Part shown: piece after piece, positions 1,542 through 3,645 of the stretch
How positions within the stretch are numbered: position 1 is the stretch's first letter
Layout: every line of letters begins with the position of its first letter
Assembly (NCBI GenBank): GCA_015062235.1
Contig: SUUZ01000008.1
Location: forward strand, 272 to 64,271
Reading direction: 5' to 3'
DNA length: 64,000 nucleotides
Origin: Alphaproteobacteria bacterium
GTDB taxonomy: Bacteria > Pseudomonadota > Alphaproteobacteria > RF32 > CAG-239
Notes under the pieces: generated by a model
What the model was told of the DNA's origin: nothing
Seen by the model: the letters and a program-made list of their open reading frames with translations, nothing else
Databases searched by the model: none
Program-made: the position numbers and the translations under genes

Positions 1542-1665
1542 TATAGACAAAAATATTAAAAACTGTTCTTGACAATTCAAGTGTTTTTTACTACTTTGTG
1601 CCTACAAATTTTATTATTAATTAAAAGCGATGAGTCGATGCTTGTTATAACTGACAGTTAAAATT
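1542..1665 (+). repeat. 124-nt upstream block, copy 1 (duplicated at 2843..2966)
   Basis: Aligns without gaps to 2843..2966 at an offset of 1301 nt. I count only 2 mismatches (gcgaTgag/gcgaGgag and aacTgac/aacCgac). Confidence 0.9.
1569..1597 (+). promoter_or_regulatory. Sigma70-like promoter candidate for repeat-protein gene 1
   Basis: TTGACA (1569-1574), a 17-nt spacer, then TACTTT (1592-1597). It lies inside the duplicated block. Confidence 0.45.
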
Positions 1666-2772
1666 ATGTGTAATAGTATTATTAAATACCAACTACAGAT
1701 GTTGGCGCAACCTAATGCTAAAGAACTTTTGTTAAATTATACCAATAAAGGTAATTGCCTTTGTGATGTGGTACAATTGAAGATGTTTAAGCTTTCGAAT
1801 GCCAAGAAATTGGTGAGAGTTTATATTCAAAGTAACCAGCTTTGTGATAAAGCTCAGTTGGAGTTATTTTGTCTTCCAAATGCACAGGAGCTTATAAGAA
1901 CATATATTCAACGATATCCTTTTTGTGATAAGGCGCAGTTGAAATTGTTTAAGCGTCAAGATGCCAACGTTTTAGTAGGTGATTATATTCGATATCGAAA
2001 GATTTGCGAAAAGGCTCAATTGGAATTGTTATGTCTTCCAAATGCGCAAGAATTTGTAGAAATATATGCTCAAAAATACTTTTTTTGTGATGAAGCTCAA
2101 TTAAAAATGTTTGAACTTCCAAATGCTGAAAAGTTGATAATGGCTTATATTGAGCATAAAAGTTTTTGTGATAAAGCTCAGTTGAGGTTGTTTTGTCAAT
2201 CACCTGAGCTTATAGAGGCATATATTCAAAGACATCCTTTTTGTGACAAGGCGCAGTTGAAATTGTTTGAATATCCAGATGGTAAAGATTTTATAAAATT
2301 GTATGTTCAAAAACATTTTCTTTCTTGTGAAGCTGAAATGAAGCTTATCAGTTGTGGAGAGAAAGCAAAAGATATAGTAAAAATATATGCTCAAAGCTTT
2401 TGTCTTCGTAATGCAGCTGAAATAAGAATGTTAGAATCACCAAGTGCTGAGACGCTTTTGAAGTCATACATTAAATATCGAAATCTTTGTGATGAAGCTC
2501 AGTTAAAAATGTTTGAACTTCCAAATGCTAAAAAGATTGTTAGTTTATACATTCGAAAACACCTTCTTTGTCGTGAAGCTGAGTTGAAAATGTTCGACTT
2601 ACTAAATGCTCCAAGGCTTGTCGCTATCTATATAAAGAATTATCCTCTGTGTAATGAAGCAGAAATGAAGATGCTAGAACTGCCAAATGCTAAATCGCTA
2701 GTGGCAGAGTATGTTAAACGTTTTAAGCTTTGTAATAAGGCTCGAGAAAAGTGGAACAAAATTATAAAATGA
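1666..2772 (+). CDS. Protein made of 13 tandem 27-residue Cys-punctuated helical repeats (unassigned family)
   Basis: Units such as CDKAQLELFCLPNAQELIRTYIQRYPF and CDEAQLKMFELPNAEKLIMAYIEHKSF repeat back to back over the whole length. No signal peptide or TM segment. Lys-rich C-terminus. Confidence 0.8.
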   Translation: MCNSIIKYQLQMLAQPNAKELLLNYTNKGNCLCDVVQLKMFKLSNAKKLVRVYIQSNQLCDKAQLELFCLPNAQELIRTYIQRYPFCDKAQLKLFKRQDANVLVGDYIRYRKICEKAQLELLCLPNAQEFVEIYAQKYFFCDEAQLKMFELPNAEKLIMAYIEHKSFCDKAQLRLFCQSPELIEAYIQRHPFCDKAQLKLFEYPDGKDFIKLYVQKHFLSCEAEMKLISCGEKAKDIVKIYAQSFCLRNAAEIRMLESPSAETLLKSYIKYRNLCDEAQLKMFELPNAKKIVSLYIRKHLLCREAELKMFDLLNAPRLVAIYIKNYPLCNEAEMKMLELPNAKSLVAEYVKRFKLCNKAREKWNKIIK

Positions 2773-2802
2773 GTTAGTTAGTATTTATAATTTGACACAA
2801 AG

Positions 2803-2843
2803 AAACTTCCAAATATTGCATTCGCAATTTTGGGAGTTTTTTT
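2803..2843 (+). terminator. Rho-independent terminator after repeat-protein gene 1
   Basis: Long imperfect hairpin aaacttccaaat...ttttgggagttt with an inner stem attgc/gcaat, followed by a T-run (2837-2843). Confidence 0.6.
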
Positions 2844-2966
2844 ATAGACAAAAATATTAAAAACTGTTCTTGACAATTCAAGTGTTTTTTACTACTTTGT
2901 GCCTACAAATTTTATTATTAATTAAAAGCGAGGAGTCGATGCTTGTTATAACCGACAGTTAAAATT
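2843..2966 (+). repeat. 124-nt upstream block, copy 2
   Basis: Near-identical to 1542..1665 (see copy 1). Confidence 0.9.
2870..2898 (+). promoter_or_regulatory. Sigma70-like promoter candidate for repeat-protein gene 2
   Basis: Same TTGACA-17-TACTTT arrangement as in copy 1. Confidence 0.45.
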
Positions 2967-3605
2967 ATGTGTAGTAGTATTATTAAACAACAACTACAGA
3001 TGTTAGCACAGCCTAATGCTCAACAACTTTTGCTAGATTACATAAAAGAAGGAAATTGCTTATGTGATGAAGCTCAATTAAAAATGTTTGAATTTCCAAA
3101 TGCACAGGAGCTTGTGTGTACATATGTTCGATGTCGCCCTCTGTGTAATGAAGCAGAAAAATTACTTCTTTACCTTCCCGATGCAGAAGAACTGATAAAG
3201 TATTATACTCAGAGATATTCCTTCTGCAGAACAGTACAATTGGAGTTGTTTTGTCTTCCAAATGCCTTGGATTTGATAGAGTTTCATATTAAACATCATG
3301 TCCTTTGCGATGAAGCTGAGATAAAAATGCTAGATTTGCAGGATGTTAATGTTTTGAGAATGTATTTCAAAAACTATCCACTGTGTGCGGGAACACAAAT
3401 GGAGATGCTGAAGCTTGGTAATGCTTTCAGCCTTGTGAAGATGTATATTAGACATCATTATCTTTGCAGAGAGGCTGAGATTGCAATGCTAGATTTGCCA
3501 AACGCACAGAAGCTTGTAAAGATGTATAAACGTCGTTACTTGATGTGCGAAGAGGCAAAAGAAAAGCTTAAAAAAATCAAAAAAACAAAGAGATTTTGTT
3601 TTTAA
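2967..3605 (+). CDS. Paralogous 27-residue repeat protein (7 units)
   Basis: The N-terminus MCSSIIKQQLQMLAQPNAQQLLLDY parallels gene 1 (MCNSIIKYQLQMLAQPNAKELLLNY). Six further units follow, e.g. CREAEIAMLDLPNAQKLVKMYKRRYLM. Lys-rich tail. Confidence 0.8.
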   Translation: MCSSIIKQQLQMLAQPNAQQLLLDYIKEGNCLCDEAQLKMFEFPNAQELVCTYVRCRPLCNEAEKLLLYLPDAEELIKYYTQRYSFCRTVQLELFCLPNALDLIEFHIKHHVLCDEAEIKMLDLQDVNVLRMYFKNYPLCAGTQMEMLKLGNAFSLVKMYIRHHYLCREAEIAMLDLPNAQKLVKMYKRRYLMCEEAKEKLKKIKKTKRFCF

Positions 3606-3610
3606 ATTGG

Positions 3611-3645
3611 AATACCACCTGCTTATGCTGGTGGTATTTTATTTG
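3611..3645 (+). terminator. Rho-independent terminator after repeat-protein gene 2
   Basis: Stem aataccacc (3611-3619) / ggtggtatt (3630-3638), followed by ttatttg. Confidence 0.75.

Follow-up and report, generated by a model that had tools for sequence, protein, structure and literature searches.

A tandem pair of alphaproteobacterial genes encoding predicted alpha-solenoids of a 27-residue LPNA repeat

Solenoids of short helical repeats have been described in several protein families. LRV proteins (PDB 1LRV; Pfam PF01816) form a continuous solenoid of two-helix repeats of 24 residues, an alpha helix plus a 3-10 helix, with a proline starting one helix. The Helicobacter cysteine-rich proteins (Hcp; Sel1-like), a multigene family of a host-associated bacterium, carry signal peptides and Cys-punctuated alpha/alpha repeats of 36 residues with one disulphide pair per unit. 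PUF/Pumilio domains are elongated alpha-solenoids of 36-residue three-helix units that bind RNA, and the HEAT-like and PBS-lyase HEAT-like repeats (PF03130, PF13646) are helix-turn-helix scaffold units of about 27-30 residues found in bacteria. TALE and bacterial ankyrin (Ank) effectors combine conserved N- and C-termini with a variable number of fixed-length repeats, and occur as several paralogues per genome. The tandem genes described here, termed A and B, lie in a 64,000-nt stretch (33% GC; the window) of contig SUUZ01000008.1, from assembly GCA_015062235.1 of an uncultured alphaproteobacterium. Both encode proteins modelled as two-helix units with an LPNA turn, and this 27-residue repeat is a predicted alpha-solenoid type that the curated families do not cover. 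The two proteins are read as cytoplasmic solenoid scaffolds encoded by self-contained, tandem-duplicating cassettes whose 5' blocks were homogenised mainly by conversion, a reading to which a probability of roughly 55% is attached.

A and B are real genes. The helical repeats originally counted in their open reading frames (ORFs), 13 in A and 7 in B, were borne out. At a lag of 27 residues, self-identity was 32.3% for A, where shuffled sequences gave 7.0 +/- 1.3%, and 21.1% for B, where they gave 6.8 +/- 1.8%; harmonics appeared at 54 and 81. A hidden Markov model (HMM) of the unit gave 12 matches in A and 7 in B; and secondary-structure assignment on the models (DSSP) yielded 13 helix pairs plus a cap for A and 7 plus a cap for B. 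The units had also been called uninterrupted stretches of 27 residues. This is correct as the dominant period and too strict for single units, as lengths in A vary from 25 to about 31 residues (in order about 31, five of 27, 25, 28, 25, 29 and three of 27, with the irregular stretch in region 168-274) and one unit of B has 26. A second cysteine at position 10, which had been described as frequent, was found in only 5 of the 20 units of A and B together. The strong divergence of the coding repeats held at the DNA level: Tandem Repeats Finder detected no tandem array in A or B because the units are too diverged, and the best-matching pair of A/B coding units is 81% identical, all other pairs being 77% or lower. 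Antisense ORFs at 1949..2203, 2200..2394 and 3013..3261 were rejected as genes and regarded as by-products of the repeat coding strand.

AlphaFold2 models of the two proteins are entirely alpha-helical and of very high confidence, with a predicted local distance difference test score (pLDDT) of 94.8 for each and predicted template-modelling scores (pTM) of 0.81 for A, with 27 helices, and 0.84 for B, with 15. The proposal of an alpha-solenoid of helix-turn-helix units, for which disordered models were to count as refutation, agrees with what was obtained, namely continuous solenoids with two helices per unit, of 7-9 and 9-11 residues, ending in a longer C-terminal capping helix that takes in the Lys-rich tail. 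Each unit begins with an N-cap residue (Cys or Ser) and a helix A of 7-9 residues (DEAQLKLF), passes through an L-P-N turn into a helix B of 9-11 residues (AxxLVxxYI), and ends in a loop of 4-5 residues with a terminal leucine. The N-termini of A and B lack a hydrophobic stretch, as judged without a dedicated signal-peptide or transmembrane predictor, and are modelled within the solenoid. Per-position entropy was computed over 549 units from 159 family proteins, comprising 19 alignable units of the window and 530 from relatives. Conserved positions 4, 6, 8, 9, 11-14, 17, 18, 21, 22 and 27 form the core, and the most variable are positions 15, 16, 19 and 20 together with the loop at 23-26, the highest entropies being those of 20, 19, 16, 15, 26 and 24. 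Whether variable residues cluster on one face, a question raised at the outset, was judged by helical periodicity, which puts 15, 16, 19 and 20 on the same side of helix B; with the loop, they would form one exposed stripe along the modelled solenoid.

Searches against the curated families agree with the original statement that the repeats lie outside TPR, Sel1, ankyrin, HEAT/ARM, PPR, LRR, LRV, mTERF and TALE profiles. Pfam returned no repeat-family match for A and B at E<=10 and only sub-threshold noise for ten long relatives, and among 60 family members any one Pfam family was matched in at most 3, always below threshold. The TPR, Sel1, HEAT, ARM, ankyrin, PPR, mTERF and LRR profiles were not matched near gathering score by A, B or the 60 relatives, and the lone sub-threshold mTERF match (E 0.0056) fell in a non-repeat region of protein P0137. 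NCBIfam, PHROGs and PADLOC searches gave only sub-threshold noise for the repeat proteins, a sequence-profile search of PDB only a de novo NTF2 design (E 0.44), and a literature search on solenoids of 27-residue units or LRV-like families no relevant work. The HEAT-like units, nearest in length, differ in that their profiles (PF03130, PF13646) were unmatched by A, B and the 60 relatives and in that the motif here consists of the LPNA turn and an invariant Tyr21. The Hcp proteins share Cys-punctuated alpha/alpha repeats with A and B, but the latter have one conserved cysteine per unit, which sits at the helix N-cap and is interchangeable with serine, do not match the Sel1 profile, and show no hydrophobic N-terminus of the Hcp kind by the inspection described above.

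A profile search for further members, as had been suggested at the outset, revealed a sizeable family. The unit that defines it, [CS]-[DE]-E-A-[QE]-L-K-[LM]-[FL]-x-L-P-N-A-x-E-L-[LVI]-x-x-Y-[IV]-x-x-[YH]-x-L, is required in at least three copies, and A and B conform to it. Among 1.84 billion representatives (50%-identity clusters), the exhaustive search retrieved 510 proteins with E<=1e-3, of which 250 reached <=1e-10 and 41 reached <=1e-30. A word-indexed protein search returned 19 relatives at 26-40% identity, though not A and B themselves; the one named relative was a 'hypothetical protein' from an 'Acetobacter sp.' metagenome-assembled genome (MAG), and cluster look-ups gave only 'hypothetical protein [Alphaproteobacteria bacterium]'. 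All organism-labelled family members belong to alphaproteobacterial MAGs, and the loci from GTDB genomes (L001-L004) are alphaproteobacterial or Pseudomonadota MAGs; the TopA of the window is itself 82-93% identical to proteins labelled 'MAG: Alphaproteobacteria bacterium'. Three architectures were distinguished: short all-repeat proteins of about 210 residues, like B; proteins of about 400 residues whose N-terminal region (MKKxxLxWLDFLA) and C-terminus are conserved; and proteins with an N-terminal multi-transmembrane domain and a C-terminal KGW[VIL] motif. Plasmid, phage and viral contig collections yielded no relatives. The family would add to the known alpha-solenoids a well-defined class of 27-residue, two-helix units with very high model confidence and no curated profile, and units so short and regular lend themselves to scaffold design; it also marks a fast-evolving accessory family in an abundant uncultured gut alphaproteobacterial lineage with almost no known biology.

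Each gene is preceded by a block of 124 nt, and alignment of the two blocks upheld the claim that they differ at just 2 positions (window 1631, T/G, and 1652, T/C; 98.4% identity). A 40-nt core of the block is present at exactly two places in the window, where 0 would be expected. Identity between A and B is at noise level upstream of -124, rises at a sharp edge just after the terminators, is 100% from -120 to -41 and 95% through +20, and then declines steadily until, by +140, it has reached the baseline of the repeats (about 60%). Because non-coding DNA of this identity lies beside diverged coding DNA, neutral shared ancestry is excluded as the cause. Analogous upstream blocks on another metagenome contig (L012) differ by 7-37% between paralogues, so that selection alone does not demand base-perfect identity, and gene conversion or partial re-duplication is favoured. 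Homogenisation by gene conversion, as first suggested, is plausible in view of the sharp 5' edge and the gradual decay into the coding sequence, and the near-identity would mainly stem from a recent event at the 5' end, either conversion or partial re-duplication, with functional constraint in addition. The regulatory oddity of identical blocks thus has an ordinary explanation, and the sharp-edged promoter/leader block offers a clean natural case of regulatory DNA that evolves in concert in tandem paralogues.

Read from the sequence, much of the block appears to be promoter rather than leader. The promoter of A was left out by a promoter scan, its -10 hexamer matching at just 3 of 6 positions, but the same layout recurs upstream of family genes in other genomes (L008, L010, L012), with a consensus or near-consensus TTGACA -35 element, a spacer of 16-17 nt and a TAnnnT -10 element, followed by AT-rich leaders of 40-60 nt that lack a Shine-Dalgarno (SD) sequence and carry an ATTATTA/TTATTAT motif near the predicted transcript start. 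Of 15 family upstream regions, 12 contain exact TTGACA and 12 the AT motif, compared with 11 and 6, respectively, of 97 controls; the 15 regions represent only about seven independent lineages. No SD-like motif precedes the ATG of A or B, as had been noted, compared with 30 of 54 naive ORF starts in the window that have one. Within the leader lies a mini-ORF of seven codons (MLVITDS and a stop; 1638..1661 and 2939..2962) which ends 4 nt ahead of the main ATG in both genes; 3 nt upstream of its own ATG stands GAGGAG in copy 2 and GATGAG in copy 1.

The cassette organisation is most evident on L012, where eight tandem family genes occupy 6 kb (L012:475-5905). Each is preceded by a conserved block of about 109 nt (63-93% identity), encodes a protein that begins with M(E/K)KIIEKIKNG, has a variable number of 27/28-residue repeats and ends in KARELGLI, and is followed by the same GC-rich terminator; several of the gene calls start too early, ahead of the likely true ATG (MEKII...). 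Another locus, L010, carries two family genes 3 kb apart. By its sequence layout, the A-B pair is a two-member version of the L012 arrangement (Table 1). A simple terminator scan found none in the window because its loop limit is 3-8 nt; folding was used instead and supported the claim that each gene has its own terminator. The hairpins before and after A share the stem sequence AACT(C/T)CCAA...TTGGGAGTTTT, and the ancestral duplicated unit may therefore have included the terminator.

Table 1. Features of the A-B locus, in window coordinates
Feature	Coordinates	Strand	Description
Terminator hairpin of the HAD-phosphatase gene	1478..1516	+	17-bp stem, -25.6 kcal/mol, z -7.1; 5' limit of cassette A
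Upstream block 1	1542..1665	+	putative promoter and SD-less 5' leader of about 60 nt, gene A
Predicted sigma-70-type promoter of A	1571..1599	+	TTGACA 1571..1576, 17-nt spacer, TACTTT 1594..1599; read from sequence
Gene A	1666..2772	+	ORF, 368 residues; 13 two-helix repeats of about 27 residues and a C-terminal capping helix
Terminator hairpin after A	2800..2842	+	-21 kcal/mol (folded 70-nt stretch), z -6.0, U-run end
Upstream block 2	2843..2966	+	putative promoter and leader, gene B; TTGACA 2872..2877, TACTTT 2895..2900
Gene B	2967..3605	+	ORF, 212 residues; paralogue of A, 7 two-helix repeats and a Lys-rich capping helix
Terminator hairpin after B	3603..3650, or about 3603..3645	+	-19.1 kcal/mol, z -4.9, then U-rich run

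A model is proposed in which A and B are expressed as monocistronic genes, probably well transcribed from a strong sigma-70 promoter, and their products would stay in the cytoplasm, where the units would stack into a continuous rod. The variable stripe of helix B and loop would serve as a ligand-binding face, most probably for proteins, making A and B modular binding scaffolds and not enzymes. A cassette would run from a terminator through promoter, AT-rich SD-less leader, conserved N-terminus, repeats and C-terminal cap to the next terminator; such cassettes would multiply by tandem duplication, alter their repeat number and homogenise their 5' ends. The 124-nt block would then be the cassette promoter plus 5' untranslated region, kept alike mainly by gene conversion or partial re-duplication and to some degree by constraint. 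A further step, possible but doubtful, is that the LPNA repeats constitute an expandable repertoire of binders in these metagenome-only Alphaproteobacteria, aimed at host, protist, phage or competitor targets; with similar reserve, the cassettes may be pictured as duplicating in tandem (2 here, 8 in L012), changing repeat number and exchanging 5' ends by gene conversion in the service of that repertoire. If true, the system would parallel the eukaryote-like repeat effectors while using a scaffold of a new type.

Several observations weigh against the scaffold-cassette model and its extension. Protein A is 100% identical across metagenome contigs and shows no strain-level hypervariability, which weakens the notion of a diversifying binder repertoire. 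No conserved operon partner was seen across L001, L002, L008, L010, L012, L015, L023 and L024, and neither a fusion partner nor a conserved neighbour points to a pathway. The expression and the ligand of A and B are both inferred, and the exposure of the variable positions is deduced from helical periodicity only. As for the block, two copies alone cannot separate gene conversion from strong purifying selection. In addition, an unrelated 90-residue gene at the equivalent site of a related locus (L020) has the same promoter/leader layout, which may be a feature of accessory genes, or of these genomes in general, and not specific to the family.

Among alternative accounts of the repeat itself, that of A and B as very divergent LRV members, with no separate family, draws on the fold. 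Both have short two-helix units with a proline starting the second helix; 1LRV is among the top Foldseek matches in PDB (E 0.28, probability 0.75, template-modelling score (TM-score) 0.33-0.35), and LRV-annotated phage proteins make up 4 of the 16 top matches in BFVD (best E 1.1e-3, probability 1.0), the LRV-annotated models there ranging over E 1e-3 to 0.3 and TM-scores of 0.38-0.42. Judged by the models, LRV-type short two-helix solenoids appear to be the closest known architecture, so the original dismissal of LRV stood at the level of profiles and gave way at the level of fold, where LRV-annotated proteins are the nearest structural analogues. Membership is nevertheless unlikely: the Pfam LRV profile was unmatched at E<=10 by A and B and at E<=0.1 by the 60 family members, a PDB sequence-profile match is absent, the unit has 27 residues against 24 and is alpha/alpha in the models against alpha plus 3-10 in 1LRV, and no Foldseek match in PDB or BFVD exceeded a TM-score of 0.5. 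PUF domains rank first by Foldseek in PDB through local 3Di similarity (A: E 8e-4, probability 0.99; B: E 0.085), and A and B are basic (isoelectric points, pI, of 9.0 and 8.4) with Lys-rich tails, which together could suggest modular nucleic-acid binders of the PUF, PPR or TALE type with one repeat per base. The superposition is poor, however, with TM-scores of 0.2-0.3 and root-mean-square deviations (rmsd) of 10-18 A among the PUF matches (about 0.2 and about 17 A for A), and the match of three-helix 36-residue units to two-helix 27-residue ones reflects a generic solenoid similarity. Moreover, the conserved Tyr21 would lie on the core-facing heptad face and leave no exposed stacking ladder, P0020 has 134 acidic against 76 basic residues, and a family pI range of 4.6 to 9.2, with charge not consistently basic, argues against a general role of this kind, which is very improbable. 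Still less credit is given to a thiol ladder, in which the boundary cysteines bind metal or Fe-S clusters or sense the redox state. Cysteine makes up about 5-6% of residues, stands directly before helix A at 18 of 20 unit boundaries in the A and B models, and often has a histidine three residues ahead, at position 25. This is the N-cap position, though, and across the family it holds serine as often as cysteine (28% each) and otherwise T (7%), D (6%) or N (4%), together 17%. S, T, D and N being the classic helix N-cap set, a structural role of the cysteine is likelier than redox or metal binding. The cysteine that had been called invariant is near-exclusive in one subgroup only, that of short proteins (A, B, P0004, P0007 and P0028), and a metal or disulphide role for it is disfavoured by its location and its interchange with serine; CxxC and CxC motifs are not present, and the distance expected between equivalent positions of adjacent units, about 9-10 A, would not allow them to share a metal ion.

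The remaining alternatives concern the deployment of the proteins and the control of their genes. A and B could be translocated effectors that, lacking a Sec signal, leave by type IV, type I or flagellar type III export and bind host, protist or competitor proteins, as Ank, TALE or Sel1-type repeat effectors do. In favour of this are the presumably host-associated origin of the MAGs, the tandem arrays of several genes whose ends are conserved while the repeat number varies, the accessory distribution described below, the Lys-rich tails, and an ankyrin-repeat gene (5922..7007 of L010) two genes upstream of the family gene. Yet the effector role is rather unlikely, for neither the 64-kb window nor the loci showed secretion-system genes, basic C-termini are not a consistent trait of the family, members with N-terminal multi-transmembrane anchors stay in the bacterial membrane, and plasmids and phages gave no matches; the repeats also differ from those of TALE and Ank effectors in being about 60% identical in DNA and not near-identical, with neither signs of secretion nor a target found. 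A post-transcriptional function of the conserved leader had also been put forward; the block could act as a structured leader, a small-RNA target or an upstream ORF (the mini-ORF at 1638..1661) coupled to the main ATG. Such a function would suit the missing SD sequences, the stop of MLVITDS 4 nt before the ATG, the synonymous nature of the substitution at 1652 within that frame, the GAGGAG ahead of copy 2 and the recurrence of the ATTATTA-type motif near the predicted transcript start of distant family leaders. Against this, the leader lacks a stable fold (z +1.3), being equalled by 184 of 200 shuffles, Rfam gave no match for it at gathering score and none in the blocks at E<=1, its sub-threshold matches falling mostly on terminators, copy 1 loses its GAGGAG to substitution 1631, the AT-rich motif stands before the unrelated L020 gene as well, and the block contains the predicted TTGACA-17-TACTTT promoter. 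Retention of the block for this reason is quite improbable. Coupling of the mini-ORF to the main ATG was rejected, as this segment is absent from all other family leaders.

The distribution of the locus is consistent with accessory cassettes. The exact A protein, with B downstream, was found on at least 23 metagenome contigs (JGI, ENA or Logan), although a scan of one metagenome contig collection for the leader and protein A returned nothing; three fetched copies are identical to the window but for one base, indicating a locus that is stable within the species. Upstream of the pair lies a HAD-IB-like phosphatase gene, whose orthologue precedes a family gene in L010 and is nearby in L008. At six loci of five related genomes (L017-L022), HAD orthologues at 66-83% identity have no family gene alongside, so that the A-B pair is accessory and the HAD protein was rejected as a functional partner. 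At the closest relative locus, L020, the 79% homology to the window stops at 1523, just past the HAD terminator. The site beyond it (L020:7650-8035) is occupied by the gene of the unrelated 90-residue protein, which contains Cys; a TTGTCA-17-TACAAT promoter and an AT-rich leader with ATTATTA but no SD sequence precede this gene. Elsewhere, family genes have unrelated housekeeping genes as neighbours. Near the family gene of L010, a 41-residue ORF, a radical SAM/SPASM enzyme and a 97-residue protein (L010:2804-4429) look like a small cluster of the type that makes ribosomally synthesised and post-translationally modified peptides (RiPPs).

Downstream of the pair, the window encodes a small membrane protein, an M23 peptidase, a bactofilin and FlgE. 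The first, of 125 residues (3787..4164), lies directly after B behind an AAGGA SD sequence, has a hydrophobic middle that is probably membrane-spanning, and matched neither Pfam nor NCBIfam. The stretch 4267..5975 then holds the M23 peptidase, with a DUF5930-like N-terminal region, and directly behind it the bactofilin, after which come the FlgE-like hook protein (6079..7290) and polysaccharide genes of the GtrA and RgpF types.

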